A DNA stretch of 62,436 bases, counting the filler, from Sanchytrium tribonematis (lineage: Eukaryota), in NCBI GenBank assembly GCA_018985235.1. It is 6 parts of 6 records of this genome, joined end to end, with 100 filler letters (N's around TTAATTAATTAA, not from the genome) between each part and the next. Parts side by side here need not be neighbours in the genome. Positions count along the whole stretch, not along the records: positions 1 to 30,760 come from JADGIG010000052.1; 5 more parts are not named here. One strand, written 5' to 3'. The notes under the pieces are model-generated. The model saw only the letters and a program-made list of their open reading frames with translations, did not search any database and was not told where the DNA came from. Positions 7,901 to 56,212 of this stretch are shown piece after piece (the stretch's first letter is position 1; every line of letters starts with the position of its first letter). A program made the position numbers and the translations under genes.

Positions 7901-9562
7901 GGTTGATTGAAGATGTGAAAGGTATTGTTTCAGCCACTGCACAGTCCATGAATAATCTTGGAGATTTCAGTGGAAAGAGTGCGAAGCATTTGGAAGAAGT
8001 GTGGGCTTTGTCAAAAAGTGCAATCGCAAGTGTGACTTCTGCTGATAAGCTTACCCAAATTGAATTATTAAAATCTGCAGCGGCCATGTCTCAGAGTATG
8101 AATGAATTGATCAGCACTGCAATGCAAGTGTGTGGCAAACCACAAAATGATCCTGAATTCGCAACTGTTCTGCCTCAAGCTGCAAAGAAAGCCGCACAAC
8201 AAATTGCAGTATTTTACAAAGCTGTTGAGAGTGTGAGCGATGAAAAAACTAGAGCTTTGAAAGCTATTACAGCTGTAATGGGAGATTTGAAATTCCAGGA
8301 AGATGCGTTCTTAAGTGACCAAAAAGCTGAAGGGTATATTTTATTTATATAGTACTGCGTTACCAGATGATGTTCTTAAATGCTCCAGAGATGTTGCTGC
8401 TAGTGTAGCCGCAATGATGTCCACATTTGGAAAGAAAGATGAGTTAGTCTTCAAACTAAACGACTCTAAGAAATTGGTAGATGAAATGATCAGAACAACT
8501 AGAGCTTCCATTGAAAATGCTCCTGATGCTCAGAAAAACAAAATGAAAGTTAACATTCAGTCATTCTTTGAAAATTTTGGAGTATTGCTAACTACTCTCA
8601 ACGATCCAAATGCAGATAAATCTAAAATGGAAGAAGCCGCCCGAAGAGTTGGCGCTTCTATTAGTGGTATTTCTGATGTTGCTAAGCAATTAACACCTGA
8701 TGGCTATGTCGACCAGGATGATCCAAACTATATTGCTGAGCAAGAATTAATATCAGCTGCCAATGCAATTGACATTGCGTCAAAGAAATTAGCTAAGATG
8801 ACATTTGCTCCACGAAAAGAAGGTGAAGATATGACATTTGAAGAGGCATGTGCAGAAATTGCAAGAGCTGTTATTGGCGCTTCATCTGCCTTGATTAAAG
8901 CTGCTACCAGTGTTCAAAGAGAAATTGGTTCAAAAGGTCACAAACTTAAGAAAGAAAATGAAATGTTCTTCAGTGATGGTACTTGGAGTGATGGACTGGT
9001 GAGTGCTGCTAAAGTTGTTGTAGCAGCTGTAGGTGATCTCGTAACTCTTGTCAATGAGGCATCAAAAGGTAAAATTCAACCTGAAAAGATTGTAGTTGTT
9101 GCAAGAAGTATCGCAAGTAGCTGTGCACATTTGATTGCATCCGCAAGTGTCAAAGTGGACTTGGAAAGTCAGGCTCAATTGAGATTGAAAGCTGCTGGTA
9201 AACAAGTTACTGCTGCGGTCGAAAACTTGGTGAATACTGTTGAAGAAAAAGTCCAACCTGACGACAATGCTGTATTCAATGATGCAAAGGCCAGCGGTGT
9301 CAAGGGCAGAATCGGAGAAATGGATGCCCAAACTGAAATTTTGAGAATGGAGAAAGAATTAGAAAAAGCCAGAAATAGGTTGGCTGGAATGAGAAAAGAT
9401 AAATATACAAAGCCAGAAGATATTAAAACAGGAACTATCAAATCTGCTTCAAAGGAGACCCCACCATCTTCTAGTAGCACTTTTGCAATGAACCGTGATT
9501 CTGCCACCAGGCTCAGTCAAATTGGAAGTAAGAGCACTATGATGAAACCACAAAAGCCATAA
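1939..9562 (+). CDS. TLN: Talin (FERM head, helical rod, I/LWEQ actin-binding domain, dimerisation helix); join(1939..8333,8353..9562), 2534 aa
   Basis: KKFYFSDQNVDRNDPVQLNLVY, RSLRTYGVTFYLVKEK, WAATPNSLTLDFGD, ISQLIGGYIDIILKK; C-terminal DGTWSDGLVSAAKVV and EMDAQTEILRMEKELEKARNRL. Confidence 0.96.
8334..8352 (+). other. 19-nt GT-AG intron (gtatattttatttatatag), phase 2
   Basis: Excision gives GAA GG|T ACT GCG, fusing the 2137-aa and 415-aa ORFs into one full-length talin. Confidence 0.93.
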
Positions 9563-9822: not shown

Positions 9823-11029
9823 ATGAAGGGGCATTATATGAAATCGATATCTCCTAAATTAATGTCAATAGAATCACCTGACTCGTTTTGGGAGCGAGTA
9901 CTCAACTCCGAGCCCATATCTAATAAGAAACTAAAAGAATCAGCACGAAAAGGCATTCCTCAAGAATATAGAAGAAAAATATGGATAAAATTGGGAAGTA
10001 ATTTTTCAATTCCATTGAAACCAAACGAGAATATATTAAAATGCTTGGGAACAAAATTTCCTCATATCGAGTATGCACCATATCTTAAAAATCTGATTTA
10101 TGTTATGAGAACAATTTTAGACCCTGGTGAGACTGCGAGTCTCATCGGGTCCATGATTATGGATGACAAACTTTTAGTGAATTCCAATTATACTCAAATG
10201 ATTAATCTTGCTGAAAGCATGAACAAAAATGGCGGAAATTGTGAAAGAATGATGGACTCATTTTTTAACGATCTTTCAATAGAATTAAGATGTAGACTGA
10301 TAGACTGCTTAATAGTGGAGGGGTTTAAAATATCAGTTAAATTCTGCCTGTCGGCGTTGTCATTCCCTGAACTGCCTGATGACCTTATATTTATGAAAAA
10401 AGTATTCTCATTTTCTTTTTCTAGAAAGAAATTAGACTCTGCAAAAACGTCTCCATATTCCCCAGAAATTATCGGTCATGATTTTCCAAATGATGCCGAT
10501 CTTACAGAAGAAGACTGGTTGTTTATCTGGAAACACATTCCTCAAAGAGATATCCAGAGTCATTTAAATTTATGTTTTTCTTCAAATGAACACGGATATA
10601 ACATTTCATCTCTTTACAGATTGTTGGACGATAATTCTCCATTCATATTATTTATTACAACACTAGATCACGAAGTCTTTGGAGTTTTTGTTTCTAGCCC
10701 TGTAGATTTTGGCCAAGATTGTGGAAATGGTGATACACTTTTATTTCAAATACAACCAAGTCACCATTGCTATAAAGTTAACAAGGATAAAAGTGAAATT
10801 GACAAATGTTTTATTGCCAATAAGAAGGAAATAATTGTTGGTTCTTCAAAGTACATTTTATTAATTTAGACATGGTCAAGCCCTATGGATACACGAATCT
10901 TTGACATTTGGATATACTGCATCTTCCAATACATTTATGAGTCCGCCTTTGGTCTCCTCGAAGCAACACGCCAACCACGTTGGTCACAAATTTGAAATTG
11001 CGAATTTAAAAATTTATGTTCTAGAATAA
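9823..11029 (+). CDS. Degenerate TBC (RabGAP-like) + TLDc domain protein (TBC1D24-like); join(9823..10850,10870..11029), 395 aa
   Basis: LKESARKGIPQEYRRKIW (TBC start); FSSNEHGYNISSLY, EVFGVF, GNGDTLLF (TLDc); spliced exon supplies ALWIHESLTFGYTASSNTFMSPPL...FEIANLKIY. Confidence 0.85.
10851..10869 (+). other. 19-nt GT-AG intron (gtacattttattaatttag), phase 2
   Basis: Excision gives TCA AA|A CAT GGT and opens the missing TLDc C-terminus to TAA at 11027-11029. Confidence 0.92.
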
Positions 11030-11180
11030 ATACTCTTTTATAATTAATCGCCTCTCATTAGCACTAAGGGCCTTTCTATTCCGTCGATTAGGTCATTTAT
11101 CTCATCAAATTTACCATTCATGCTAATTGAATTTTTTACAATATTACTGATCAAATTTGTCTAAAGGGATTCAATCCCAA
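11022..11180 (-). pseudogene. Decayed duplicate of the 3' end of the SLC12 gene (copy of ~13371-13580)
   Basis: Shared blocks tagaataaatactct, cctctcattagcactaagggcctttctattccgtc, ttaccattcatgctaat, caaatttgtctaa; deletions of 18, 21 and ~14 nt. Confidence 0.9.
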
Positions 11181-11446
11181 AGCACGTCGGAAGTTCAAAT
11201 GTTTTGAATTAATGCAAGACGATTTTGATGCTGAATTTATGGGAATTTGAAAAGCAGTCAATGGCTCTGAAACTCTGAAAGTGATGAGGATTGGTAAATA
11301 AACACTAGATAAATGCAAAGAAATTAAATGCCATCTATTGTTGTATTAATACTTGAATAAAACTTTTGAGACTTAAGATTCAGCTAGTGGGCAATTTGCC
11401 TGAACAAATAGAAAGACAATAAGTTTGAGTTTTAGCATACCACTAT

Positions 11447-13138
11447 TTATTTCAAACCAGAAGCTGAGCATAAAATCCTAAGAGAATTGTTCAATTTACA
11501 AGCCTCGTCGACCCATTCAGGTTCCAATTCCCAAACTTTATCCTTCTTATGACATTCTGGGCTGCAATAAACATATCGTATATTCGAAACCTTCTTCAAA
11601 CCAGTAGCTCTTAGTAAAAATTGATTCACGTTGTCTCCTATACTCAAGTAAATATCCGAAGAAATCGCGGAACTATTGCTTGTTGCTGGATCTTTTACTT
11701 TTTTAGCAGGAATTTTTTTGCTTAAGTCTTCTCTTTTCGATGCATGCGCTGTGTAAGAGCTGCAACTGATTTGAAAAGCATAAACAAAATCATCAACAAC
11801 CAAAAATGCGTCTATAGCTCGGAATCTTGGAGGTAGAAAGTAAAAGGTATTTTTCGATGCAATATTTTGAGAAGCACTGTTCGTATCGCACCAATTTTGA
11901 AAAGTACCTTCAAGATCGCGATTATTGTAAAGGCATTTTGAGTCTATAATCTGAAGGTTCACACTAGCATCTTCCACAATAGCGTATTTAGTCTTTTTCT
12001 GGGGTGGGCCCTCTTTTTCTTGTGATTGTCTTTTAACAAAATAAATAAGTTTAAGGTCAAGTGAATTAGATATGAGATCCTTGATATACAATGGCACAAA
12101 CGATGCCTCAAACAAATGAGTTGATACTGTACCTAAGACACCTTGTAAAACGTCAAGAATAGTAGTATCTTGGAGCAATTGAAGTAAACCACGTTCGTAC
12201 GATGCCAATAAAGTGCCATTTTCATCTACCAAATTGAGATCCCACAATGCGACTGACGAAATTGAAGCAGTAACCCCGGTGTAGAGCATATTCAATATCA
12301 AACCAATCGTGCTTCTCTTATTTTCCTTAAGATTGTATAACTTTCTACATGCAAAAAGTCCTGCTTTTTTCGAAAATGCTTTATCGATATCAGGGACTTC
12401 ATCTTGAAGCAGATTTGCATAAATATCGACGAAATAAAAGATTCCACCAGTAAGTTTTAACAAATGAGAGATATCGACTGTTGTGGCTGGCAGACGATGG
12501 CTAACATAGGTGGTTACAGTCTCAATATCTAATGGCTTGATATCTACTATTTTCCATATTCCGGATGAAACTATATTATCAGCAATAAGATATCTGATAA
12601 CTAACCTCTCGTCCATACTATTAAATTTCCAACTACCAGACCCTGCTACAATCTGAGTGACACGGTTATCTCTAAATTGCTCTAAATTTTGAATGGGTCT
12701 TGTAAACCTATAATACGCGTCAATCTCATCATTGCCTTCCTTACCGGGCCACATGTCAATTAATAGGATTTTTTTATAATCTTTCTTTTTCAAAAGCAAA
12801 TGCATCATACGACTTGGTTCTGGATATGGCTCAGAGAGATGACTTTGTAAGGTATCTATCAGCTCATCTGTGAATCTAACAGTTGCATCTTGTACATACA
12901 AAACTATCAAATCTCTAATGTTATATTTTTTAATATAAATTTCGATAAGACCTTTTAAAATTATCAAGTCGGTACTCTTTCCCACTCCCCAGCTACCTTG
13001 TAAAATATAATATGGAAATTTTGGGGAATCTAAAGCCGATAGCAATTCTGGAGGAAAATTTAATAAACATTCTTTGTCTTTGTATTTAAAGAAAGGAATT
13101 TGGGATATAAAATCCTTGATGGTAGGCGGTTGACTCAT
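11447..13138 (-). CDS. P-loop NTPase + C-terminal restriction-endonuclease-fold protein (Crinkler/RHS-type NTPase-REase architecture)
   Basis: Walker A ILQGSWGVGKST, Walker B ILLID, LTGGI motif; C-terminal FRAIDAFLVVDDFVYAFQISCSSYTAH resembles the D...QxS/T..H REase variant. Confidence 0.7.
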   Translation of the reverse strand: MSQPPTIKDFISQIPFFKYKDKECLLNFPPELLSALDSPKFPYYILQGSWGVGKSTDLIILKGLIEIYIKKYNIRDLIVLYVQDATVRFTDELIDTLQSHLSEPYPEPSRMMHLLLKKKDYKKILLIDMWPGKEGNDEIDAYYRFTRPIQNLEQFRDNRVTQIVAGSGSWKFNSMDERLVIRYLIADNIVSSGIWKIVDIKPLDIETVTTYVSHRLPATTVDISHLLKLTGGIFYFVDIYANLLQDEVPDIDKAFSKKAGLFACRKLYNLKENKRSTIGLILNMLYTGVTASISSVALWDLNLVDENGTLLASYERGLLQLLQDTTILDVLQGVLGTVSTHLFEASFVPLYIKDLISNSLDLKLIYFVKRQSQEKEGPPQKKTKYAIVEDASVNLQIIDSKCLYNNRDLEGTFQNWCDTNSASQNIASKNTFYFLPPRFRAIDAFLVVDDFVYAFQISCSSYTAHASKREDLSKKIPAKKVKDPATSNSSAISSDIYLSIGDNVNQFLLRATGLKKVSNIRYVYCSPECHKKDKVWELEPEWVDEACKLNNSLRILCSASGLK

Positions 13139-13395
13139 AAATTAAAGATGTGTTTCCCCCTTACCCCTTCAAGGTAAAGTTGTGTATGAATAATGAGGAA
13201 AGCCAGTAAAATATAATCCGGTACTTGCTTCCATTTAGCCAGCTCGCACTTTCTTTAGTGAATTCTATGTCAGCAGACTAGATGCATTTCCGCCAGTGTC
13301 AGTATTTGTGTCATATTGTGTTATCTTTTCAGCAAAAAAAATTATTTGTCCAACTTTTGGAAACCATTGTTAGAATAAATACTCTCATTTTAAAA

Positions 13396-15690
13396 TTAAT
13401 CGCTAATTACTTTGCTAGCACCTCTCATTAGCACTAAGGGCCTTTCTATTCCGTCTATTAGATCATCCATTTCTTCAAAATTACCATTCATGCTAATCAT
13501 CATGATATCCACTGGTTTTGAATTTTTTATAATATTATTGATATGTTTGTTCTGACCAAATTTGTCTAACTGATTCCAATTCTCACAAAATATTTGATGA
13601 ATGATCACTTGTCCTTCAATCCTCAATTGTACTAATTTGTCCTTCATTTTATTTCTTTCCTCTTCTGGTTTATCAAACACAAGCACATGGATTCTTATTT
13701 GAGCATATTTCCACCCATGGCTATATCCCAAAATACATCCCATTTGATAAATAAATGTGTCGACTTCAAATAATGGCCAAATGGAAATAACTCTTTGCTG
13801 TTTTGGTTGCAATAAATGCATGTGTTTCACAAACATCAAATGAACATGCAAATGGTACAACGTATAAATAATGTCTGTCATTTCTTCGTATTGGTCGCTT
13901 TGAGGGTATTCTATCATGACTGTGTTTGGAGACATTCCTCCTAATCCACTCGTTGTTGTGACTGGTACAATTGATTTTAAATAGTCCATTTTTACAAGTT
14001 TGGTGAATACTTTTACTTGCAACACTTCCATCCAAGATTCTATGTCTTTTAATTGTTGCTCATAATTTTCTAAATTGTCTACCGCAACACATAAAATAAA
14101 TAAACCACTCTTTTTTAAATCATTTGCAAATTGAATCAAAGAGTGGTGGGTGTGTACCTCTTTAAAAACTGAATCTGGAGTATTATTTAAATGTAAATTG
14201 CTTAACACCATTAATATTTGTGGTCTCCAATATTGAACAGTAGCCGGTTTCAAACGTAATAAATATTTTCGAATTTGGTGATACAGCAAGGCATCATTAA
14301 CAGTAGAATCAGCTACAGCTTGGACTTTGTTGCTTTTCAATACGACTATACAGCCTATAAATGTACAAATCAAAATGGCACTAAATAAAGGGTGGATGTA
14401 AATCATACTGCACAAACTGAATAATAATCCTATACTCGCTGTGTATTTGTTGTAAAATTTAAACAATGGTCTAAAATTAGGCGAACTGCTTAATGTACAT
14501 AATAAACAAGATAAATTTACACTCACATCCGCTAAAAGATAAAAAAGACTCACAAAAGTACTAGAAGTATTCAAGTCTAAAGGGGTTAGTAGCAACACTT
14601 GACAAATAAACCATGTGATTAAAATAGAATGTATTGGATTAAAGTAATGATTTAACATGTTACTAGCACCCTGCATAGTACTGACAATGCTTGAAAAAGT
14701 ACTGCTTAACATTCCAAAAAATACAATTCGGGGTAGAATGCTAATATCAAGCAAGAAGTAATAATTATTTACCAAAGTCGTTCTTTTAAAGGTAGCTCCA
14801 ATAAACAATGTGAAAAATGTATAAATGATGCAAATAAATAAAGTACTACTCAAAGCACCAGTCGGTATATTTCTATGTGGATATTTCAGATTGTCATTAA
14901 TTGACTCCACGCACTGAAAACCAGTCACTGCGGGATATAAAATCGAGAAGATTGATTGAAATGTAACAACATTGTTATTTTGATCATTGGTGTAATCTGA
15001 AAACATGTTTTGTTTTAATGTATGAAGAGAAAATCCAGTGAAATCAATTTTCATGTTCTGTTTCTGAACCAAAAAAGAAACTAAAATAATAAATATAGTG
15101 GTACACTGTGTGAAAAAGATGAAAATTAATGATTTATCATAATATTTGTTCCCAATAATGGCAGTTATACAGGTCAATGCCAAGATAATGGTGGAATATA
15201 TGTAGTCAAATATAGGAGAAACAGGAAGGATCGCGGGAAATGTGGAAGAATGCTTTCTTCCCAAGACAAACACAAAAGTTTCAGTTAGACCTGTAACATA
15301 AAAGGCTAGCCCAAAAATATTAGCCAAATAAAAGGATATACCCAGCGCACTTCCAAATTCTCTACCCAAGGTATTTGTAACAATCGTGTAGATATTTTTC
15401 GAGTCTGATGATGAATTTGTCAAAATGGCAGAAGTACTCAGAACAGTCATGGAAATAGAAGTACAAGCTAAAATTGTCAGAACCAACGTATTAAATACAC
15501 CAGTCTCTCCAATAACGTATCCAAATCGAGTAAACAAAATAAAACCAATTATCGAACAAATACATGGCAAAAAAACACCGCGAAAAGTTCCAACTTTCGG
15601 TAAGTTTTGGATTTGAAAGCCTGTATCAATTGGCGGTACGATAGGTGGAGAAAGCAAAGGAATTTGCTCTTCCAAATGATCTTGTTTCAT
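13396..15690 (-). CDS. Cation-chloride cotransporter family protein (SLC12A9/Vhc1-like)
   Basis: KVGTFRGVFLPC, GREFGSALG, FSILYPAVTG, SSPNFRPLFKFYN, QYWRPQIL, NDLKKSGL, SGLGGMSPNTV; many TM segments. Confidence 0.92.
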   Translation of the reverse strand: MKQDHLEEQIPLLSPPIVPPIDTGFQIQNLPKVGTFRGVFLPCICSIIGFILFTRFGYVIGETGVFNTLVLTILACTSISMTVLSTSAILTNSSSDSKNIYTIVTNTLGREFGSALGISFYLANIFGLAFYVTGLTETFVFVLGRKHSSTFPAILPVSPIFDYIYSTIILALTCITAIIGNKYYDKSLIFIFFTQCTTIFIILVSFLVQKQNMKIDFTGFSLHTLKQNMFSDYTNDQNNNVVTFQSIFSILYPAVTGFQCVESINDNLKYPHRNIPTGALSSTLFICIIYTFFTLFIGATFKRTTLVNNYYFLLDISILPRIVFFGMLSSTFSSIVSTMQGASNMLNHYFNPIHSILITWFICQVLLLTPLDLNTSSTFVSLFYLLADVSVNLSCLLCTLSSSPNFRPLFKFYNKYTASIGLLFSLCSMIYIHPLFSAILICTFIGCIVVLKSNKVQAVADSTVNDALLYHQIRKYLLRLKPATVQYWRPQILMVLSNLHLNNTPDSVFKEVHTHHSLIQFANDLKKSGLFILCVAVDNLENYEQQLKDIESWMEVLQVKVFTKLVKMDYLKSIVPVTTTSGLGGMSPNTVMIEYPQSDQYEEMTDIIYTLYHLHVHLMFVKHMHLLQPKQQRVISIWPLFEVDTFIYQMGCILGYSHGWKYAQIRIHVLVFDKPEEERNKMKDKLVQLRIEGQVIIHQIFCENWNQLDKFGQNKHINNIIKNSKPVDIMMISMNGNFEEMDDLIDGIERPLVLMRGASKVISD

Positions 15691-15845
15691 ATGACGATTA
15701 TGATTATGAAAAATTCAAGCTACCAAATTATAATCTTTTAAAAATGAAAAGTTTTTGCTTTAATTATCAATTCTCGGATCTCAGTGCCTGGTGAATTTAT
15801 ATACTCAGAGGAGAACTTTTTTGAAAAGGAGTAAACAACTTGACA

Positions 15846-21600: not shown

Positions 21601-23590
21601 AGCTAATATGTAGTATGGCTTATTTCTTTGAGTTTCAAGTGCGGTTGATTTGCTAAATAAGAATAGATTACCATATTAAATATTCATGCTGAACGGCTTC
21701 ATCCTCCACAATACTACACATTGTTGAAACACCCGTTCCTGTATCGCCTTCTATGGTTAAAGCAATGTGGGAATGACCTAGAACAGAGTGTTTCCGGATA
21801 GCATCTCTAATTATCTCAATTTCATTTTTTCTACCAACAAAGGAAAAATTTGAAGTCGATTCTACAAGTGTTTCTTTAATTCTAATGGGTCTATAAACAT
21901 TAATTGGGTAGCTTTTTCCCTTTACCTTCTGGGGCTCCATACCTTCAAACTCAATGTTGTCACACAACTCTTTTGTTCTGTCGTCACAAAGCATTGATCT
22001 GTGAGCACTCTTCAAAAACATCAGTCTTGCTGCCATATTTATGGAATCTCCCATTAAAGCATATTCTGTACGTAAAGAATTTCCTACTCCACCAATACTG
22101 ATGACTCCAGTTGTAATTCCCATCGAGTAATTCTCAAATATATCTGCAAATGCAGTATTAATTTCAAGAGCAGCACGAATTGCCTGGCTTGCATCGTTTT
22201 TGTGAGCTAAAGGTGGCAATCCGAAGAAAACTAAAATTATCGCACCTTTATCATCCACATGAAATTGCCTCAAAATTCCTTCGTGTTTGCTTATACTGAC
22301 TTGAACTACAGTCAATGCCTTTTGCAAAAGTGCAACAATAGAAGTAATAATATTTTGTTTGTCTTGCTCTAAAGGTTGTGCGTCTGCTAATGAGCTCTCT
22401 ATTGTATGCTCACATTCTTTCATTTTCAATGATATCCGTTCTTTTTCTTCGGTGTTGGAGCTTTCGTCATATCTAGCTTTCAAATTTAGTAGATTCGTTC
22501 TTGCATTTTTCTCATCTTCGCTTAATTTAGCAACTTGCTTTTCTATATCTTCTAAAGCATCTAGAGGAATAGAACTAATTTTTATGAATATTGTGGTGAC
22601 TTGACGCAATTCGTTAATGGACATCAAATGTTGTACACCTTGATGTAGTTGAATTGGACTAGAGTGTTGCAAATCAGATTCTAATTTGTACAAAGCACTC
22701 TGATTGACATATAGTTTGATTCTATCGTGAAAATCTTTGCTGTAAGTTGACTGATTAATCTCCCACATGTTGTAGAACTCATTCTCGTCTTCCATTACTT
22801 TCTTAGTTTTTGGAACTATTGTCATTCTAGAAAGACCATTCAAAATAACACAAGTCTTATCAAAGGACTCCATTTTCAAGCCATTGATTTCAACCACTTC
22901 TCCGAAATATCGAAAAGCTTTTTGACTTAAAGCCAATTGTCCAGCCTTCGCAAGATCGAGTACTTGGGAAATTTGCTCTATTGCATCACCGATGCAAACA
23001 TGTTCCCATCTCCCAGGGCTTCCACCCACGTGAACATCAAATATTTGGCCCGCTCCGATCCCCAGATGAATACGCAAAGCTCTTTGTTCCGTCCCTGATC
23101 CCTCCTCATTTGGAATTTCAACATTATAAGGATTAAGTAGATCCAAAAGCTCCAAACAGCAGAGACAAGCTTTGAGAACCAATTCGCCATATCTCTTAAG
23201 CTTGTCCTTTTTACTCTCATTTTCTTTATTAGGGGGCGATTTCCAATAAAATATCACAGCGTCCCCCACAAATTTTACAATATCACCTCCATGTATACAA
23301 ATCGTGTGTATAATTTTATCTAAATATTCTTTCATAACTCTGGCCAAAATTTCAACGCCCTCAGGCCCTCTTTCACCAAGAGTTGAAGCCAATGCAGAGT
23401 AACCACTAACATCACACATGACAATTACTGCAAATCCTTCCAATGCTTTAGGTTGAAGTTCTGACTTGTCTTGACAATGTTCAAGAACATGTTTAGAGAC
23501 AAAATTAGGAAGGAGTTGTTCAAAAGGAGTAATATCATCATATTCTATTGGAGTTAATTGAAGATCAAATCCGTACTCATTATTTTCCAT
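18634..23590 (-). CDS. Soluble adenylyl cyclase (ADCY10-like: two class III cyclase domains, STAND/AAA-like domain, TPR-like tail); join(23590..21672,21652..18634), 1645 aa
   Basis: CDVSGYSAL, GGDIVKFVGDA, RIHLGIGAG (C1); ELRQVTTIF, VDDKG, FGLPPLAH, EYALMGDSINMAARLM, KVKGK (C2); FVGRKNE, ECQWMD, SGGNPLF, FDRL. Confidence 0.9.
21653..21671 (-). other. 19-nt GT-AG intron (gtaatctattcttatttag), phase 2
   Basis: Excision gives ATA TG|C AAA TCA and an open frame (CKSTALETQRNKPYYILADIVRDL) into the 986-aa ORF. Confidence 0.93.
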
Positions 23591-29537: not shown

Positions 29538-30760
29538 ATGTATCTCACTTTTATGAGTAATTCAATACGCTATTGCTTGATAATAAGTCAATTGGGAATA
29601 TTTACTGGTAGATGTATTCCACCTGTGGCTACAAATATCACTATTGGAATTGGATTTGTCAAAATTAGCAATGCTAATGTTTGCATGACAAATATAAACT
29701 CGGTACTTAATGGTACATTGTGCGACTTTAGCCAAAATCAGTGGGATGTAACTTTTATCTCCAATTCATATAAGATATTCCAATCTGGGTGCTGCCTAAC
29801 CACTCAACTTTTAATGAATTGCGTAGATTCAACTCAGTGTACTTGGATAAGCTCAAATTCTTTAGATTCCATTGCCCTCAAGAGTACACCACTAGATGTT
29901 AAATATACGGAGTTTTCTATTAGAGGAATGGCCTCTTTAAGTTATTCTGGTTACGCGTGGCCAGTTTATTTTCAAAATACATACATCTTGTTTGTATGCT
30001 TTTACACGACAACTTCGCTGTGCTCTTCTATTCCGAATTACCTTGCTCCCTATCCAGTTGCCATGACTCCGGGATCTTTCAATTCACAGTTAATTACAAT
30101 TTTTCAAACAGGTACAACATTTCAGATTGAAGATGTGAGAAGTGGCACCTGTGTTGTATCAAGTCCTGACTGCTCAGCGAAGTTTACTGACTTTACTCAA
30201 TATACACCTACAGGCACTGAAAATCTCGTGATGTTTGCGACTGGTGTGTCCGCTATTCCATATTTATGTCTGGGCTACAAACTTCATAATATGTCTATAA
30301 CAGTAACGAATTGCCTAAGTAAGAATATGAATACTGTGAGATCCAGTTTTGTAAGTAGTTCGAGTTATAACATGTATTTAGGAAACACAACTTACAAATT
30401 TGGATTAGACAGTAATGCTAAGCCCTATATTACTACGGCTGGTCTTATAAGTAGTCAATTTGGAATTAGAATTCCTAGTGGGCAAACCAAATTTTTTATT
30501 AAAGCTAGCACTGGATGTTTGAAGCTCTCCACCACTACTTTAATTTGGGGATTTACTTATACCTGTTCTAGCAGCTTAAACACGGCGACTTTAATATCAA
30601 TTTCATTTGTAATTTCTGAAATTTCCGCAAGTTTAATTAACGTTCCAGTTTCGATTCAAAATATCAATTGTTTGGGTCAATTGAATTTGTCAATTGTTAG
30701 CGGTGCTTGTAGCAATTCAAAATTATGGGAAATCATTCCATCAATGGGAGAAGATGTTAG
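29538..30760 (+). CDS. Cys/Ser/Thr-rich, probably extracellular protein, truncated by contig end
   Basis: >400 open codons; recurring xCL/GCL...W spacing loosely like beta-trefoil repeats; start uncertain. Confidence 0.5.
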
Positions 30761-30860
30761 NNNNNNNNNNNNNNNNNNNNNNNNNNNNNNNNNNNNNNNN
30801 NNNNTTAATTAATTAANNNNNNNNNNNNNNNNNNNNNNNNNNNNNNNNNNNNNNNNNNNN
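30761..30860. other. Artificial contig spacer (44 N + TTAATTAATTAA + 44 N)
   Basis: The same 100-nt six-frame-stop linker recurs at 37111-37210, 43451-43550, 49782-49881 and 56113-56212. Confidence 0.99.
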
Positions 30861-30873
30861 TGGATTAAAGAGA

Positions 30874-31203
30874 ATGAATTTTTTTATTAACGCATTTACT
30901 AAAACTAGTGAGCCAAGATACAGAATGCTGGAATTACGAACAATGACACGAAACCCAGCTGAACTTTGGCGTAGAATTATAGGAGCAGTCTTGTTAATTG
31001 GAGGGATGTGCATGCTTATATACAAGAATATATTTGGCATTATGGTAATGATTGCTGGAACAGTATTCTGGTTGCGAGACTTAACGCCCAATCAAGCACA
31101 ACCTCCAGCAATAGAGGCAATTCCACCGGAAAATCGAATTGGTCCTGCTGATAATAGTATAATACGAGCCAGAAGTCCAGGATCGGAATTAATTTGGGAT
31201 TAA
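30874..31203 (+). CDS. Small two-TM orphan protein, tandem paralog 1
   Basis: KTSEPRYRMLE, ELWRRIIG, GTVFWL, ENRIGP, RARSPGSEL shared with 31321-31644. Confidence 0.75.
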   Translation: MNFFINAFTKTSEPRYRMLELRTMTRNPAELWRRIIGAVLLIGGMCMLIYKNIFGIMVMIAGTVFWLRDLTPNQAQPPAIEAIPPENRIGPADNSIIRARSPGSELIWD

Positions 31204-31320: not shown

Positions 31321-31644
31321 ATGGATTTTTTCAGTGACGTACTTTCTAAAACAAGTGAGCCAAGGTACAGAATGCTGGAAATACGAGCAATAAGACAAAA
31401 TCCAATTGAACTTTGGCGCAGAATTATAGGGGTGGTCTTGTTAATGGGAGGCCTTCGCATGGTTTTTTATATGAATATATCTGGAGGTGGCCTACTATTA
31501 ATTTTTGGAACGGTATTCTGGTTGCAAGACATACTGCCCAATCGAGCACAACCTCCAATAGAGGCTATTCCACTGGAAAATCGGATTGGTCCTACTGGTA
31601 ATTTGCGAGCCAGAAGTCCAGGATCGGAATTAGATTTGGATTAA
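31321..31644 (+). CDS. Small two-TM orphan protein, tandem paralog 2
   Basis: As above; upstream ggattaaagagaATG shared; indels between copies preserve frame. Confidence 0.75.
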   Translation: MDFFSDVLSKTSEPRYRMLEIRAIRQNPIELWRRIIGVVLLMGGLRMVFYMNISGGGLLLIFGTVFWLQDILPNRAQPPIEAIPLENRIGPTGNLRARSPGSELDLD

Positions 31645-37010: not shown

Positions 37011-37210
37011 AACACGGAGTATTACTGTAAAATATGTCCTCCAGTAAAAATGTTATAAAGAAACCCCCAGGCCCTCTGCAGCCCGCAAACCTAGCAGAAA
37101 TGGTTGACCCNNNNNNNNNNNNNNNNNNNNNNNNNNNNNNNNNNNNNNNNNNNNTTAATTAATTAANNNNNNNNNNNNNNNNNNNNNNNNNNNNNNNNNN
37201 NNNNNNNNNN

Positions 37211-43100: not shown

Positions 43101-43450
43101 AATACGAAAATTCCTGATTTGGTAGAAATGATTACGAGCAGTGGTATCAAAAGCAAAAATGCCAAATCCAAATTCCAGATTTCTGCTCAAATTGATATTA
43201 AAAAATTCACAAACACTTTGGTGATCTTCATGGTTAGTCTCGCCCTGGACGAGACAATTATGTATTATCCATTTCACGGAAGTAATTTGATTTTATTTAG
43301 CTTTTACCAGAAATATTCAGTCAATACCATATGCCATTGCTATTATTTTGAGAGATTTGAGCATTTCGGTCGATCCTACAAAGTGGGAAAAAACCTTTGA
43401 AGTTGTGTGCCAGCAATTTCTAGAGCAATCTTGTCTTTACCTAATGAAAT
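40119..43450 (+). CDS. NCKAP1: NCKAP1/Nap1 (HEM family) SCAR/WAVE complex subunit; join(40119..43281,43301..>43450), 3' truncated
   Basis: VADRLYVLSEFG, LYKALLKKFP, MPGFES, IKRPT, EFYALAECIGP; spliced tail YYPFHGTFTRNIQSIPYAI...QFLEQS parallels NCKAP1 NNIHC...EFLAL. Confidence 0.82.
43282..43300 (+). other. 19-nt GT-AG intron (gtaatttgattttatttag), phase 1
   Basis: Excision gives GGA A|CT TTT and a frame open to the contig end with NCKAP1-like sequence. Confidence 0.88.
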
Positions 43451-43550
43451 NNNNNNNNNNNNNNNNNNNNNNNNNNNNNNNNNNNNNNNNNNNNTTAATT
43501 AATTAANNNNNNNNNNNNNNNNNNNNNNNNNNNNNNNNNNNNNNNNNNNN

Positions 43551-44363
43551 AGATGCATAATGTAAAGCATTAATCATCCAAACAGGATCTCCAAGTTCGA
43601 TAATATCTGCTGGTTTTAATTTGTATTTAACCAGTTTATCTAGAATTTTTTCGTACATGGCTTTAAGATCTGTGGGTGGCTTCATATGCGGCGTCTTTGC
43701 AGCCATCATTTCCAAAAAATGATTTGTATTATCAATCTTATTCTGTTTCATTTCTCTGGCTGTTTTATCTAATTGTTCCTGTCTCTCTCTTTTTTGTCTT
43801 ATCCACATATTCCAACGATTCTTTTGTTCTTTGGTTGCAACTTCCACATAGATTTTCATATCCTTATCAAACAGCGAATGGGAACGGGTTTCAATTAGAT
43901 CAAGCGTTTTCTCGTTGTATACCTTTTTTAAATCATTCAGAATCATAACTCGTTGTTGAGCACTGCATAATTGAAATTGTTGTCTTATAGTTTGAAAAGC
44001 CATTTCAAGATGGTGTGGGCCACCCTCACTCTCATAAAACTGCTCTTTTAAAGTTTTAAAAATCATTTTCAAATGCTTCTTTCTATTTAAATCTTTCGGC
44101 ATGTGCTCTGCTTTCTCTACTCGCTCGATTTCACCATCTATTTCATTTGGTTGATGAATCATCACCGGCTCATTTTTCTGCAATTCCAAATCTGTAATGA
44201 ATTGTCCCAAATGATCTATATGAATCAAGGAATCATGCTCGTAATTTGATTGACGAGTTCTTCTTTGATAATCATCATTAGGATTTGGAATGCTGGTTTT
44301 AATTTTTGGTTTGGTTCTACCGAAAGCATTTCCACCAAATACACATAAAAATGCAAACAACAT
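43551..44363 (-). CDS. Orphan secreted protein (short signal MLFAFLCVFG), 3' truncated
   Basis: Hydrophobic 10-aa N-terminus and upstream DNA shared with 45401-46123. Confidence 0.7.
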
Positions 44364-44582
44364 GGGGGATAAACAGATCGCTGTTTAAATACAATTGAAA
44401 TGAACACGTGGTCGTGCAAATTGACCCCTTGGGATATTTATTTTGCAGTGCAAAACTGGAGAATCTTAAACACAAATGACTCGCGAGTGACTCACAAACA
44501 GTCAATCTACTCCCAAATGTCAAAAATCCATTTATTTTGCCCATTAATTTACCCTGCACTTCCAAAAGCAAATCAAAATTAG

Positions 44583-45400: not shown

Positions 45401-46123
45401 TTAGTTGTTTGTGAATTTCAATGAATCAAACTTGCTAACCCATTCTCGGGGCAAGTAAGGCAATACATCTTCCTTTTCAGGAGAATAAATTGAATTGCCT
45501 GAATAGTATTCGGGGACGTCAGGCAAATATCTAGCATAGATCTCATCAAAACGATTTAAAGTGTTTCGTTGCCCAATATCATTGAGAAATGATGTCGCTT
45601 CTTCTTTTGATTTAGGTCTGTTCATGACAAAGTATACCACAAGATCTCCTATTAATGGTTTCAAATCTATTTTGTCTTTGTAATGGTGAATCACATTCTC
45701 AATCAAATTGACAAAAATCTTGTCACCTATTTTTTTAAACAACGCCATTCTCATACAGAACCAGACATCATTTTGCTCAATAGAAGGAATCCAGGGGTCG
45801 TAAGGGGTTTTACGATAGAACTCCCAGAAGTAGTACAATTTGTTGATAATCCATGCTTTATCCTTGTCATTATCATTCAATGTTGTATCGTAGTGACATG
45901 CTTTGTGACTTTTGCGAAACTGGCGATGGTGCAATTCTTTTATTTGTACTCGCAAATCTAAATGTGCTCTATTTTCATATATATTCTCTGAACGATCGTC
46001 AAGAAGTAATCGCTGACTCAAAGAATCATTTGGATCATTTGGATCATCCACAGTTGTTGGTTGTCGAATCAGACCACTGAGCGATTCCCATATCCCAAAT
46101 ACACACAACAATGCAAAAAACAT
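45401..46123 (-). CDS. Orphan secreted protein (short signal MFFALLCVFG)
   Basis: 240-aa ORF, hydrophobic N-terminus, AATAAA overlapping the stop. Confidence 0.72.
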   Translation of the reverse strand: MFFALLCVFGIWESLSGLIRQPTTVDDPNDPNDSLSQRLLLDDRSENIYENRAHLDLRVQIKELHHRQFRKSHKACHYDTTLNDNDKDKAWIINKLYYFWEFYRKTPYDPWIPSIEQNDVWFCMRMALFKKIGDKIFVNLIENVIHHYKDKIDLKPLIGDLVVYFVMNRPKSKEEATSFLNDIGQRNTLNRFDEIYARYLPDVPEYYSGNSIYSPEKEDVLPYLPREWVSKFDSLKFTNN

Positions 46124-46235: not shown

Positions 46236-46339
46236 TGAGTACAATAAATTTGCAAATGGATGCCCCCAAACAGTATCACCAATGACTCACAAACAATCAA
46301 TCTACTCCAAAATGTCAAAAATCCATTTATTTTGCCCAT

Positions 46340-47758
46340 TTATTTGCCCAATTGACTCATTTGTACTTCCAATTGTCTAATCTTGACATCTTTTTGAGCC
46401 ACTTCATTCTTCAATTTCTCCACTTCTTTTCTCAATTGATGATATGCATCTTGATATTCCTTTTCATTACTAGGTAATTTCTCTTCAACGACTTCTTCTT
46501 GCACAGCATTAAAACTCTTTTCAGTGGGTTTAAATCCTTTTTCCAATGAAATTAATTTTGGATTACCGCATTTACCACCTAAATACTCTGTAATAGACTG
46601 GGATGGCTCATCTCCAATTGTATTTGGATATAAATCACTTTGGAATCCATCTGATTTACGTGGCACTGTAAATGAAATCACTTCAATTTTATCTGTTTGC
46701 AATTTATAGCCCCTCATGATTTCATTATTTTGTAAATCCACGCCTCGTTTGGGTCCAAATGCAAATCCACGTTGCGGATCTCCACTGCTAAATTGACTCA
46801 AATAAAATGGACTGCCAGCATCTTCTGTATCCCATTCGTAATATCGGATATTGCCATCTCCTTTACCCACCAAATAAATCAATTTGGTGTCTTGGTCATA
46901 AAATGGCATCATGACACCCGCACTAGAATCTAATTGGATCTCCTTGACAGGTGCAGCCATGTTTTTGGTATTGTAAATAAATAATTGTCGATCTGATTGT
47001 TTAGAGAATCCAGTAGTCAATAAATAGTCAGAATCACCCATCCAGCACACACGGGATGATTTAGCACCTTGATGGCCATCGATACTTGCAACGACTTGTG
47101 CACCATTAGCCTGGTTGGCACGTGGGTCCAATAATCTCAATTTCTTGTCTTTTGAAGTGGTTGCGAATTGGGATCCATTGTAATTCCATGATGCGCTGTT
47201 CAACAAATCAGCGTGTCCAATCACATCCACGACAGATTTACCATGTTCCACATCCCATAATTTACACACCAAGTCAGCTGCACAACTCAAAAGCAACGCA
47301 TTCGTGGTAGGATGGAAATAGACATATTGCACTTTACGTGAATGTCCATTTAAAGTCAATAAAGGCGTATTGAAATGAGAGACACCTCCAGATGGACTCG
47401 TTGCAGATTCTGTATTCTTAGATTCTGCAACATTCCAAATCTTGACAGTGCAGTCTTCAGAAGCACTCGCAACGACAGATTCGACAAATGGGTTAAAATC
47501 TGTATCCAAAACAGGTGCAGAATGTCCATTGTAAAGTGGCAATGCATCTGGTTGTTTTCCAACTTGACTCAATGGAATAATCGCAAATGAGCCACCACCT
47601 TGAGATTGCCAGTTGACACTCAAATATTCCGTATTCGCTTTAATCAAATTACAGTCATGTGCATTGGTACTTGGCTTAATGTTTTCATAGTTTAATTCTC
47701 TCTTTAAAGGTTGGCCATAAACATGTCTGTATTTAGAATTACGCACAAATCTAGACAT
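46340..47758 (-). CDS. CRN1: Coronin
   Basis: MSRFVRNSKYRHVYG, WD40 repeats, GKGDGNIRYYE, VPRKSDGFQSDLYP, C-terminal coiled coil. Confidence 0.97.
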   Translation of the reverse strand: MSRFVRNSKYRHVYGQPLKRELNYENIKPSTNAHDCNLIKANTEYLSVNWQSQGGGSFAIIPLSQVGKQPDALPLYNGHSAPVLDTDFNPFVESVVASASEDCTVKIWNVAESKNTESATSPSGGVSHFNTPLLTLNGHSRKVQYVYFHPTTNALLLSCAADLVCKLWDVEHGKSVVDVIGHADLLNSASWNYNGSQFATTSKDKKLRLLDPRANQANGAQVVASIDGHQGAKSSRVCWMGDSDYLLTTGFSKQSDRQLFIYNTKNMAAPVKEIQLDSSAGVMMPFYDQDTKLIYLVGKGDGNIRYYEWDTEDAGSPFYLSQFSSGDPQRGFAFGPKRGVDLQNNEIMRGYKLQTDKIEVISFTVPRKSDGFQSDLYPNTIGDEPSQSITEYLGGKCGNPKLISLEKGFKPTEKSFNAVQEEVVEEKLPSNEKEYQDAYHQLRKEVEKLKNEVAQKDVKIRQLEVQMSQLGK

Positions 47759-49781: not shown

Positions 49782-50858
49782 NNNNNNNNNNNNNNNNNNN
49801 NNNNNNNNNNNNNNNNNNNNNNNNNTTAATTAATTAANNNNNNNNNNNNNNNNNNNNNNNNNNNNNNNNNNNNNNNNNNNNAATGCAATATTTCGCCCAT
49901 TTATCTTAAAAATATAACAATTGTCAAAAAATTTAATTTTTTTCACACTTGTTACAGAATTATGAATGAACAAGTGCTGCTTATGGTGTTAATTTGAGTT
50001 TTGAAGATCCTATTGAGTATAATTATTGATATGTGGCAGATATTTATTGTTTTTAGACTCTTGTAACAGTAGATTGTGTGGCTCAAGTTCCAATAAATTG
50101 TTTAATTCTTGTTGATTCAGAACTCTTTTGTATCCACGATTCTCAATTTGTTAGTGAATGTGCATGTGTAGTTGGACTCTTCATCTAAAGATTCAGGGAT
50201 ATTATAATTTATTTCTGATGGTGGATCGAAAATTTGTGTAAATAAAGTTAAAGAAAGTGTATTTCGAGCCACTTAGTAGTGCTAATTGCTTGTCTTTTCA
50301 ATAGAACCATGTCATTTGGTTCAGACTTCAAAATCTTTGTGGGCATCGAATTATTTTCAAAGTCATTTTTACGTTTATGGTTTTGTATTTGACTGCCACC
50401 AAGCATCTGAATGATACGTATTTCCAATTTAATTTTTCTGAAGACGATATAATCTGAGTCGTTGAGATAAAATCGATTTGAATTTTCGAAAATTGAAATT
50501 TGGAAATTGATCTCTGATTATTTGAAAAAGATGCATTTTGTTATATGGACATGCAAACTCATAGTGTTGTAAGTCATTGTGGTTATTTAGAATGGATAAA
50601 TGGGCTGTGGTCCTGTTATGGAGCTCATGATATCTTGAGATGGACAGATTTAAAAATTGGCTGTTTATTGAATGAATCATAGAATAGGTATTGAGTTTAA
50701 AAGGAAATGATGCAGATCTTAGTAATAGTTGAGTATTAGGTAAAAGACATTGGCGGAATGTGTGGCAGAGTATTGGCAAATCTAGCGTATTTGGATATTT
50801 CAATGAAAAAGAGTTCGAATACATTTGAGTCACCATTTGGGTATCATGGTAAGCAGCA

Positions 50859-51260: not shown

Positions 51261-51406
51261 AATAACTATTTATTTACCAGTGTTCTTGGTCCCCGCGGAC
51301 CCTTTATATCCCATTTCTGAGGTCTGCTGACCTCCCATGTGCTCATTTGCACGTGATAACAACGTGCTGCTGTTGTGATGGACAATTTTCATGTCATTCC
51401 GCAACA
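50873..51406 (-). repeat. 3' LTR, 534 bp, TGTT...AACA
   Basis: Starts TGTTGCGG after purine run GGAGGGA; its last 16 nt (GAAGCAGATCTTAACA) equal 56111-56096, directly before the PBS. Left boundary inferred from PPT/TG only. Confidence 0.8.
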
Positions 51407-54400
51407 TCCCTCCAACATTCAATTTGTCTATCACTAGTCGCTTTACCATGCTAGGTGTTGTCCAAAATTCAATACTTTTATTATCAATCATTTGCAGTTT
51501 TATTTTGCCATTTTCCATTGCAACAATCGAATAAGGTCCACTGGCTGGACAATCAAGTTTACCACGTTTGATTCCATCAAAATATAGCACAGTGTCTCCA
51601 ATATTTACAATGTGGAGATGGCTGCCATTTGCATTGGCAGTTGCTTTAATTCTTCGTGCATATTTTAAAACTCGCAAAGTTTGAACTACCCGCACTCGGT
51701 CCTCAACAATACCATTAATGTACTCCAGCTCAACATCCGACACATATTTATCCTTTATGGAATCTGTATTGGTCACATTTATTAAATCCACAGGTGATAA
51801 TCGAGAAGAATCCATTGCTGAGTGATTTATGCAATATTCCACTGCATGTAATGTGTCCAGCCATGATGACATCCTCCAATCTCCAGTATAATTTGATGTG
51901 ACTCTAATCATATCCAATATTGTGCGATTTAGCCTCTCAACAGGATTTGACCTGTGGAGATATGGCGTTGTATAATGAATATTCACCAACTTGTGTGCTT
52001 TAGCTGCCATGTCATGAATAAATACTTCACAGGCTTTAAATACGCCGGCATTATCTGCAATGATAGTCATTGGGATAGGAAATGTGCTGAAACACTTCAC
52101 GAGCGCATTTTTCATATTTTCTGCACTTTCATCAATTAACTCTGCAATTCGGACATATGAACTAAAAGTATCTGCTACAACTAGCACTTTACCAATCAAA
52201 TCGCCATGTTCTGATTCTTCTGGAGTCAGATGCAAGACATCAATGGCAACAATTTCAAATGGGAATCTGGCAGGAGTTCTTGTCATTACAAATTTGTTCC
52301 TCTTTGGGTGCTTATAGGCAATGCACCATTCACAAGACATACAATACTCACGGATATCTAGTGCCATTTTTGGCCAATAAAAATTTGCCAATTCTGCCAT
52401 CATTTTCGAGGATCCTTGGTGTCCTGATATGGCATCTTTATGCGTTCTGTGCAGCAACATACTTCTAAAGAATTCTGGTACAAAAATACGATTTTCAAAC
52501 ATGATCACATCCATATTGATTAATTTCAAATTTGTGATTGCCTGATCGTCATTTGCAATGTTCAGGTCATTCTGAAGGAAATTCACACACTCGAAGTCTT
52601 TCAGCTGCCATCTGAGTAGTTCACCTGGCTGTATTTCATTTAGTACACTCTCTCCCACTCGAGTATCTGGTAAATTTTGGACACTTATTTCATTATCTAC
52701 TTGATTGAGTGATTTGTCCGCATTCTCTTTAAGATCTACATCCATTACATCTGCGTTATCATTCTGTTTTGCCATATTTCTGGTAATTACCATTACTCTT
52801 GGATTCTTAGATTTTGCTTGCTCAACAGCTTCTTTGATCAGTGGATTACGTGACAAGAAATCAGCATCGAAATTCAAACTACCTTTCACATACACTATGG
52901 ATAGATTGAATGATGATAGGAAAATGCTCCATCGGTACAACTTGCCATTTAACAAATTTCTACTTGTTAAGAGCCAGGCTAATGATCCATGATCTGTGAA
53001 GACTGTGACCTTGTGACCGTAGATATATCTTTGGAATTTCTTGAGTGCCGACACAATGGAGATACACTCCAACTCTGTTATGTGCCAATTGGCTTCATTT
53101 GCGTGTAATGATCTGGACCAATAATAAAGAGGCCTACCATCCTGTAATAGCACAGCACCCAAACCTCTCATACTAGAGGCATCACATCTAATCTGGAAAT
53201 CTTTTGTTGGATCAGGATAATGCAACATGGTGTTATTTGCCAGTAGCTTTAGAAATGATTTGTAGGCGATTATTTGCTCTTCCTCCCAACACCATGGCTC
53301 ATTTTTCCGCAACAGTTTTAAGAGTGGCTGTGCTATAATGCTGTAGTCGGGTACATAGCGAGCATTTCATTGCATCATCCCATTAAAACTCATTAGTTGC
53401 TTTTTATTAGTTGGTTCAGCAGCATTAATAATTGCGTCTATTTTGCGTGGATCGGCTTGAATTCCATTTTGACCAACAACATGGCCTAACAAATCTATTT
53501 TATTAAATCCTAAACTGCATTTTTCTGGTTTCAATTTCAAATTTGCTTTTCTGAGTCTTTCGAAGATTTCACGAGTATTTGCCAAGAACTCATCGAATGT
53601 AGCTGCTCCCATGGATATGTCATCTTGAAATGCCTGTGTTGATGTTATGCCAGCCAGCAAATCATTCATAATTCTTTGAAACCACGCAGGTGCATTTACA
53701 ATACCGAATGGGACACGAGTAAACTGGTAGATCTTTCCCCCGATATAGAATGCTGTATATTTTCGTGATTCGCGGTCCAGTAATATTTGCCAATACCCAA
53801 AGGCAAGGTCAATGTGCAGGAAGTAAACCATTCCAATAAATCTCAAAATCTGCTCCTCTGCATCTGCCTGTGGATAAACATCGAGAATCATAATTTCATT
53901 TAATGGTCGCAGATCAACACAGAATCTTTTTTCATCCGTGTCTTTTTTTGCAACTAATACGGTTTCATGAACAAAATCTGATCCATCAGGACCACACTCT
54001 TCAACAACTTCCAGCTTCAGCATCTTCTCCAAATTTTTATCTAAGATTTGTAATTCTTTGACACTTCGTGGTCGTCTTTTGACTTTGTAAGGTTTATATT
54101 CTTTCAATCGAATTTTAATTGGAGGTAACTTTGCTCCAATGTCTCCTTGAAATATGTCAACAAACTCACGAACCAGAGCCTTTAGAGCCAGCAGATGATT
54201 CTTAGGAAGCCTAGGATTGATTTTGAGTTTAGCACACACTTCTTCAAATGTCAATTTAGGGTGCTGTTCGTCAAAGTGAATAATATCTACCTCTCCTGGT
54301 AATGGTTCATCTTTCATTTGAGTGTATGTTTCTTTAATATATGCCGTCCCCTCTACAACTTGCTCGTCTATGTCCACATTGACATCCGATTCTGGCACAA

Positions 54401-56096: not shown

Positions 56097-56212
56097 GTTA
56101 AGATCTGCTTCGNNNNNNNNNNNNNNNNNNNNNNNNNNNNNNNNNNNNNNNNNNNNTTAATTAATTAANNNNNNNNNNNNNNNNNNNNNNNNNNNNNNNN
56201 NNNNNNNNNNNN

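Follow-up and report, generated by a model that had tools for sequence, protein, structure and literature searches.

We examined a stretch of 62,436 nucleotides from the genome of Sanchytrium tribonematis (GenBank assembly GCA_018985235.1), hereafter called the window. The genome in this window is AT-rich (GC about 35 per cent) and very compact, with long, intron-poor open reading frames (ORFs). Our subject is a small gene at 11447–13138 on the minus strand, which encodes a predicted nucleoside triphosphatase (NTPase) and lies between two convergent neighbours: a TLDc-domain gene on the plus strand (9823–11029) and a gene for an SLC12-type cation-chloride cotransporter of 764 amino acids on the minus strand (13396–15690). 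The junction of these two neighbours occurs twice, once on each side of the NTPase gene, and the layout supports the insertion of a 2.2-kb one-gene segment with a target duplication of about 160–230 bp.

The repeated unit consists of the last bases of the TLDc gene, a spacer of 14–17 nt, and the last ~55 codons of the convergent SLC12 gene. The left copy (11022–11180) holds the TLDc stop region, the spacer, and a pseudo SLC12 3' end, and is decayed; the right copy (13371–13580) holds a pseudo TLDc stop region (13371–13378), the spacer, and the true SLC12 3' coding end, and is intact. A first-pass annotation of this DNA had described such a doubled junction of convergent genes, decayed on the left and intact on the right, with coordinates that proved right to within a few bases. 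The pair was found alike by a repeat search (11051–11127 against 13421–13497, 77 nt, 91 per cent), MAFFT, blastn of the segment against the window (E = 1.9e-25), and gapped local alignment of 11017–11209 with 13368–13602, in which 159 of 172 columns were identical. A self-comparison of the whole window with blast (E ≤ 1e-5) returned only three non-self pairs, the junction repeat among them (E = 4e-24). Relative to the right copy, the left one lacks pieces of 3, 18, 21, and 14 nt, corresponding to 13385–87, 13403–20, 13497–517, and 13538–51. Weak sequence similarity may stretch the repeat to 11209 and 13602.

Both copies start with TAGAATAAATACTC, which comprises the last TLDc codons, the stop codon, and AATAAA. 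As the TLDc coding sequence ends at 11026 and its stop codon occupies 11027–29, the repeat begins 5 nt ahead of that stop codon. The genuine SLC12 C-terminus, ...LVLMRGASKVISD (also given as ...IERPLVLMRGASKVISD), is read from the right copy and is followed by the stop codon at 13396–98 of a gene that runs from 15690. Read on the minus strand, the left copy gives ...NSISMNGKFDEINDLIDGIERPLVLMRGD (...IERPLVLMRGD) followed by a pseudo-stop at 11044–46, and its frame is lost further upstream. Because both copies begin with the TLDc end and also hold the SLC12 end, the ancestral TLDc and SLC12 genes converged, with 14–17 nt between their stops. Complete 3' ends are retained by both genes; that each neighbour kept a working end had been suggested at the outset and is borne out.

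Between the copies lies the insert (11181–13370, 2.2 kb). An ORF scan of this interval gave one ORF of at least 60 amino acids, the intronless NTPase gene, in agreement with the single intronless gene originally described there. The 3' flank of the gene (11181–11446, 266 bp, minus strand) contains no ORF of at least 60 amino acids and is poorly conserved between the two copies present in sequencing run X1, discussed below. The 5' flank (13139–13370, 232 bp, minus strand), which now also lies downstream of the SLC12 stop, carries an in-frame stop eight codons ahead of the ATG, and the N-termini of homologues align with this start. Codon usage of the NTPase ORF is host-like, with a correlation in relative synonymous codon usage (RSCU) of r = 0.90 and a third-position GC content (GC3) of 0.307; nineteen other host ORFs gave r values of 0.56–0.94. 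Recent horizontal transfer was rejected on account of this host-like usage.

With the gene-end junction as the target, the order at the locus is target, insert, target, and insertion was therefore accompanied by duplication of the target. We found no similarity between the insert and SLC12 or TLDc sequence, and tandem duplication of a repeat-containing unit was rejected because of this dissimilarity. A history in several steps could take other forms. The junction or a larger block might have been duplicated first and then filled or replaced by the NTPase gene, or a circle might have integrated in the manner of Campbell, where a single crossover with a junction-bearing circle yields the observed order and restores both gene ends. 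Tandem or near-tandem duplications do occur elsewhere in the window (30862–31218/31309–31659 and 44488–44554/46283–46349). However, more events are required than for one insertion, the insert is without the SLC12 or TLDc similarity that a tandem unit would need, and no recombinase gene is present among the ORFs; the left copy decays after the event, and its present defects may have arisen later. We give such a history an outside chance.

The NTPase gene encodes a protein of 563 amino acids for which the ORF scan, homologues, alignment, and a structural model together indicate a P-loop NTPase domain, a helical middle, and a C-terminal domain like that of restriction endonucleases (REase-like; approximately residues 400–563, at 11450–11941). 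The Walker A motif GSWGVGKS falls at residues 48–55 and the Walker B motif reads LLID. Pfam returned nothing for the protein, even at an E-value of 10. An exhaustive phmmer search of 1.84 billion representative sequences found only six other relatives, at 29–60 per cent identity. Two of these cover the N-terminal half only (P0002, 272 amino acids, 53 per cent identity; P0003, 205 amino acids, 44 per cent), and two are C-terminal fragments (P0006, 80 amino acids, 60 per cent; P0007, 72 amino acids). P0004 (550 amino acids, 29 per cent) is full length and is the only named member of the family, labelled Sanchytrium tribonematis in EukProt. The sixth, P0005 (459 amino acids, 30 per cent), has a full-length cluster member (P0009, 534 amino acids) that is 44 per cent identical to P0004.

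In the family alignment of eight rows, the conserved blocks are G.WGVGK[ST] (Walker A), hhLID (Walker B), AGSGSW, and a C-terminal block FY.LPPRF..ID.F(8-9)A.Q.S...Y..H.[ST]K, which is followed by I.Y.Y.SP. Walker A is found in all five rows that cover it and Walker B, as hhLID or hhLVD, in all six; three of the eight members match KAP_NTPase (best E = 3.4e-05). By these motifs the protein is a P-loop NTPase (AAA+/STAND/KAP-like). Word-index searches with the whole protein, the eight-row alignment, and the C-terminal alignment returned known family members only. A three-row alignment matched 265 stretches in contigs from Joint Genome Institute (JGI) metagenomes and a further 171 in viral contigs, but gave no confirmed relative. 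Profiles of PDB sequences gave nothing below E = 0.15, PADLOC gave weak ATPase matches only (best 3.8e-4), and a language-model comparison with named clusters only reached 0.86 at best, with no consistent family. The NTPase family is tiny, lineage-restricted, and fast-evolving.

The C-terminal domain was modelled with low confidence. The AlphaFold model built from the eight-row alignment was weak, with a mean predicted local distance difference test (pLDDT) score of 51, and a single-sequence fold model scored 32. The predicted elements are helices at residues 406–420 and 462–472 and strands at 432–434, 444–448, 451–457, and 520–525; in the model their order, alpha-beta-beta-beta-alpha-beta, is the order expected of an REase core. 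Foldseek found no match in the PDB at E ≤ 1e-3. The only structural match to the C-terminal domain was the endonuclease of the R2 non-long-terminal-repeat (non-LTR) retrotransposon, where residues 428–530 of the model align with 976–1062 of 8ibw_C (Z 4.9, root-mean-square deviation 3.5, 76 residues, 16 per cent identity), at a Z below the tool's reliable level. The locus differs from R2 in that it has no reverse transcriptase and in that the (D/E)xK motif is not conserved. Residues 4–313 of the model matched AAA+/STAND/ORC/TnsC-type ATPases at Z 5–6.3, a range that the tool itself calls unreliable.

At the (D/E)xK position, the five covering rows read Q-I-S, Q-I-S, Q-M-S, Q-M-S, and Q-T-I. The D of ..ID.F is conserved, and the catalytic D...(D/E)xK set as a whole is not found; the K in H.[ST]K, which comes next in four rows, might substitute. 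Among four scanned homologues, one matched the trypanosome RHS model TIGR01631 (P0004, residues 354–497, E = 0.009), at 14.2 bits against a cut-off of 89.75 and so short of membership in the RHS family. None of the eight family members matched PF07999 RHSP or any REase family in Pfam at E ≤ 10. Language-model neighbours of the C-terminal part were unnamed eukaryotic clusters (Oomycota 0.95, Basidiomycota 0.94, Euglenozoa 0.92), and one neighbour cluster at 0.86 carries PF07999 RHSP on 14 per cent of its members. A remote relationship to the trypanosome RHS family is possible, and 'NTPase plus REase-like domain, distantly RHS/Crinkler-like' is a probable description drawn from weak matches. The first-pass annotation had called the protein an NTPase with an REase fold: the NTPase half holds by its motifs, while the fold is no more than probable on weak evidence, with Q-x-S at the catalytic motif.

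The order of P-loop NTPase, helical middle, and C-terminal nuclease-like domain is shared with the Crinkler/RHS-type modules of NTPase, optional helix-turn-helix (HTH), and REase (Zhang et al. 2016, as outlined in the review PMC5289972). The NTPase protein differs from Crinkler effectors in being without an N-terminal header or translocation domain. There is no room for a Crinkler header because the P-loop starts at residue 48, and the start of the protein is backed by the N-termini of three homologues as well as by the in-frame stop 8 codons upstream. It differs further in being a single copy in the window rather than an expanded effector family. The FY.LPPRF..ID.F...A.Q.S block we take to resemble the corresponding RHS/CRN block. 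The protein is probably a remote relative of the Crinkler/RHS NTPase-REase modules. The Q at the (D/E)xK position and the lack of a header suggest that it is not a classical active nuclease or effector. The gene has most likely been kept as a host gene, not as a transposase, and would be of a putative conflict or defence type.

Only one public run (X1) contains the stretch, and no RNA data set is listed as containing it; the contigs of X1 reproduce the window, and this run is possibly the window's own source data. This single source is what might favour an assembly artefact, with the repeat or the insert misjoined. Such an error is hardly credible here. The two repeat copies are set apart by 13 substitutions and four indels and are not one sequence placed twice, one difference-free contig spans the left repeat, insert, and gene end (11056–11472) and another spans 13469–15694, and a diverged second copy of the locus in the run has the same junction between left repeat and insert.

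The depth of this second copy is roughly half that of the window form (86.8 against 172 and 69.7 against 159), and its contigs cover only about 10443–13470. One variant contig (depth 86.8, window form about 172) passes from 11036 to 13478, continues to 13521, and after 20 other letters resumes at 11152 and runs into the insert. Its left repeat copy therefore still has the 21-nt piece that the left copy of the window lost, and is followed by the insert. In the 3' flank, the same contig skips 102 nt (11318>11421) and has 12 substitutions and 8 indels in 11185–11267. Thirteen of the fourteen listed differing sites in the variant TLDc gene are third codon positions, and this excess of third-position changes marks it as a working copy of the gene, for which an allele is the simplest reading. 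In the variant NTPase ORF, 48 of 488 bases are different, and only three of the seven listed differences in 11864–12053 are at third positions; as the ORF has no gaps, its reading frame is kept, though it is changing fast. Candidate identities for the second copy are a divergent haplotype at 2:1 dosage, a second strain, and a paralogous segment. Since the insert is present in both copies, the insertion and duplication predate their split and the event is old. The differences between the repeat copies (13 of 172 columns plus four indels) also point to an old event. The left repeat copy decays in place by deletions, and the left end of the insert is not conserved.

How the segment arrived is a separate question, and the first-pass annotation had proposed that the gene mobilised itself. 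The NTPase-REase gene would then be a minimal autonomous mobile element whose own nuclease would stagger its cuts in gene 3' ends by about 200 bp, with fill-in producing the long target duplication. A single gene between two copies of its target fits this proposal, as does a C-terminal domain of predicted alpha-beta-beta-beta-alpha-beta order whose sole structural match is the R2 endonuclease (Z 4.9). The short relatives (272, 205, 80, and 72 amino acids) could be decayed copies, and, according to a review (PMC5289972), prokaryotic pairs of NTPase and REase are linked with transposable elements. There is also a likeness to Tn7, in which an REase-fold nuclease (TnsA) and an AAA+ ATPase (TnsC) likewise combine a nuclease-like fold with an AAA+-like ATPase. 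Structural comparison of the N-terminal half did return TnsC chains (7mbw_A, Z 5.5; 9g0f_A, Z 5.2; 7rzy_1, Z 4.8), but these weak matches are tied in Z with dozens of unrelated AAA+/STAND/ORC ATPases. Neither a DDE transposase (TnsB) nor element ends are present here, and the target duplication of Tn7 is 5 bp.

Several observations speak against self-mobilisation. Terminal inverted repeats (TIRs) and other terminal signals are absent from the insert: comparison of its two ends scored 17, against a mean of 16.3 (SD 2.8) for shuffled ends, and 42 per cent of 500 shuffles scored as high, in accord with the earlier impression that TIRs were absent. Both copies in run X1 carry the insert, and few stretches vary as much between them as its left end does. 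No second copy of the NTPase protein or of the insert DNA is present in the 62-kb window. The six relatives among 1.84 billion sequences, all at most 60 per cent identical, are unlike an active repeat family. The Q in five of five rows at the (D/E)xK position is non-canonical, the codon usage is that of the host, and a second gene-end duplication in the window, described below, flanks unrelated ORFs. With no TIR, no second copy in the window, and a duplication of about 160–230 bp, the insert does not qualify as a DNA transposon; we know of no DNA transposon that gives duplications this long, and a literature search on long target site duplications found nothing useful. None of these points is a decisive refutation. 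They leave the proposal unsupported, and we consider it unlikely. More doubtful still is its fullest form, in which the 2.2-kb unit would be a new eukaryotic one-gene selfish element that inserts at overlapped convergent 3' ends by cuts about 200 bp apart and rebuilds both host gene ends through the long duplication.

The gene might also have been moved in trans, either as a retrocopy of the LINE (long interspersed nuclear element) type with distant second-strand cleavage or through capture next to a transposon. The gene is intronless, as a retrocopy would be, and retroelements are present, with a Ty3/gypsy element in the window at 51270–56096. A study of fish (PMC12957317) reports that Crinkler-like genes there amplify via adjacent hAT elements. 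At this locus, however, no poly(A) or poly(T) tract adjoins either repeat copy or the insert ends, and 232 bp of sequence upstream of the ATG are included, neither of which is as expected of a processed retrocopy. Nearly all genes here are intron-poor, so the intronless state is uninformative. No transposon remains were seen inside the insert, and LTR integrases make target duplications of a few bp. Movement in trans is, we think, improbable to much the same degree as autonomous movement.

We favour a passive, single, and old insertion between TLDc and SLC12 mediated by host repair, an account in which our confidence stands about even. The 2.2-kb gene segment would have been pasted passively into the 14–17 nt spacer, by host break repair or by replication template switching at the junction of convergent transcription, and the same event would have copied about 160–230 bp of target to both sides. 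This might have happened through opposite-strand breaks about 200 bp apart, with fill-in after capture of filler DNA. Alternatively, a polymerase might have switched from the junction to the gene at another place, copied it, and returned to a point upstream of its exit. A flanking target duplication is expected both from staggered break ends and from upstream re-entry of synthesis. The long duplication may have survived because the 3' ends of the neighbours overlap, as an insertion without duplication of the junction would not have spared both genes. In the present layout, SLC12 uses the right copy as its coding end, and the left copy, behind the TLDc stop, is being eroded by deletions.

Genes have been described to move in plants as filler DNA during the repair of double-strand breaks (PMC3445842). 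Filler-DNA repair and template switching share with this locus a single gene at a non-collinear place without transposon ends. The case here differs in that the duplication is long (about 160–230 bp) and falls exactly on overlapped 3' ends in a very compact genome. A second gene-end repeat in the window involves the coronin stop codon and 3' untranslated region (46283–46349 against 44488–44554, 67 bp, 94 per cent identical). The pair flanks 1.7 kb containing two unrelated ORFs, one of 240 amino acids (45401–46123, minus strand) and one of 114 amino acids. The first 30 residues of the 240-amino-acid ORF resemble those of the gene at 43503–44363 (40 per cent identity, E = 4e-4), and the two have an upstream ACACGTGGTYGTRCAA motif in common; the arrangement suggests that a gene was duplicated in tandem long ago together with its promoter. 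As the coronin-end duplication flanks unrelated ORFs, gene-end duplications are not tied to the NTPase protein.

Other observations weigh against passive repair. The window shows no source copy of the insert, and neither junction bears clear microhomology, a TGT ahead of the repeat being all there is. For ordinary end joining, about 200 bp of duplicated target is a long stretch, and the mechanism is reconstructed from the layout and nothing else. The protein bears a nuclease-like domain, and the association of prokaryotic NTPase and REase pairs with transposable elements (PMC5289972) counts here as well. The second copy in run X1, too, may be a paralogous segment instead of an allele.

The neighbouring genes show further features. 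The TLDc gene has two exons (9823–10850 and 10870–11026): its ORF apparently stops at 10869, and an intron of 19 nt at 10851–10869 (GTACATTTTATTAATTTAG) links it to exon 2. Exon 1 matches the Pfam TLD profile at positions 8–123 (E = 6.1e-22) and exon 2 at positions 127–168 of 170 (E = 0.0045). Two talin ORFs are linked by another 19-nt intron of the same pattern (8334–8352). This pattern, GTAYRTTT...TAG, occurs twice in the window against 0.13 expected, and both introns are confirmed by continuity of the reading frame and of the domains (talin and the TLD profile). Introns of 19 nt are rare among eukaryotes, and our literature search found nothing joining sanchytrids with introns. Additional AT-rich 19-nt candidates of the form GTA...TAG lie at 43282–43300, 58711–58729, and 21653–21671. 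The SLC12 gene matches Pfam AA_permease (3.7e-33) and SLC12 (3.9e-09).

Elsewhere in the window, the Ty3/gypsy-type ORFs, on the minus strand, encode reverse transcriptase, RNase H, and integrase zinc-binding domains. The tandem pair 30862–31218/31309–31659 is 79 per cent identical and codes for small paralogous proteins of 109 and 107 amino acids (30874–31203 and 31321–31644, plus strand) with a hydrophobic middle and no known family. Paired runs of 44 N at 30761–30860, 37111–37210, 43451–43550, 49782–49881, and 56113–56212 are spaced at ~6.3 kb (6331–6350 bases from start to start) and look like masking rather than assembly gaps; they interrupt the ORFs at 29538–30812 and 43503–44363.

As it stands, the locus combines known kinds of protein and event in an unusually tidy footprint, and the event resembles repair-mediated gene movement. 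Should the gene prove to have mobilised itself, this would be the first case among eukaryotes directly supporting the proposed transposon origin of NTPase-REase modules, and its mode of transposition would involve a target duplication of unheard-of length; as a one-gene selfish element, it would be a living link from transposon-borne NTPase-REase pairs to the effector modules of the Crinkler/RHS type. If it is the product of passive repair, it cleanly illustrates the way in which a gene can be added between overlapping gene ends in a very compact eukaryotic genome: with the junction doubled and one of its copies now decaying, neither neighbour was damaged. The protein itself adds a small, lineage-restricted, stand-alone family without a header to the RHS/Crinkler-like NTPase-nuclease proteins.

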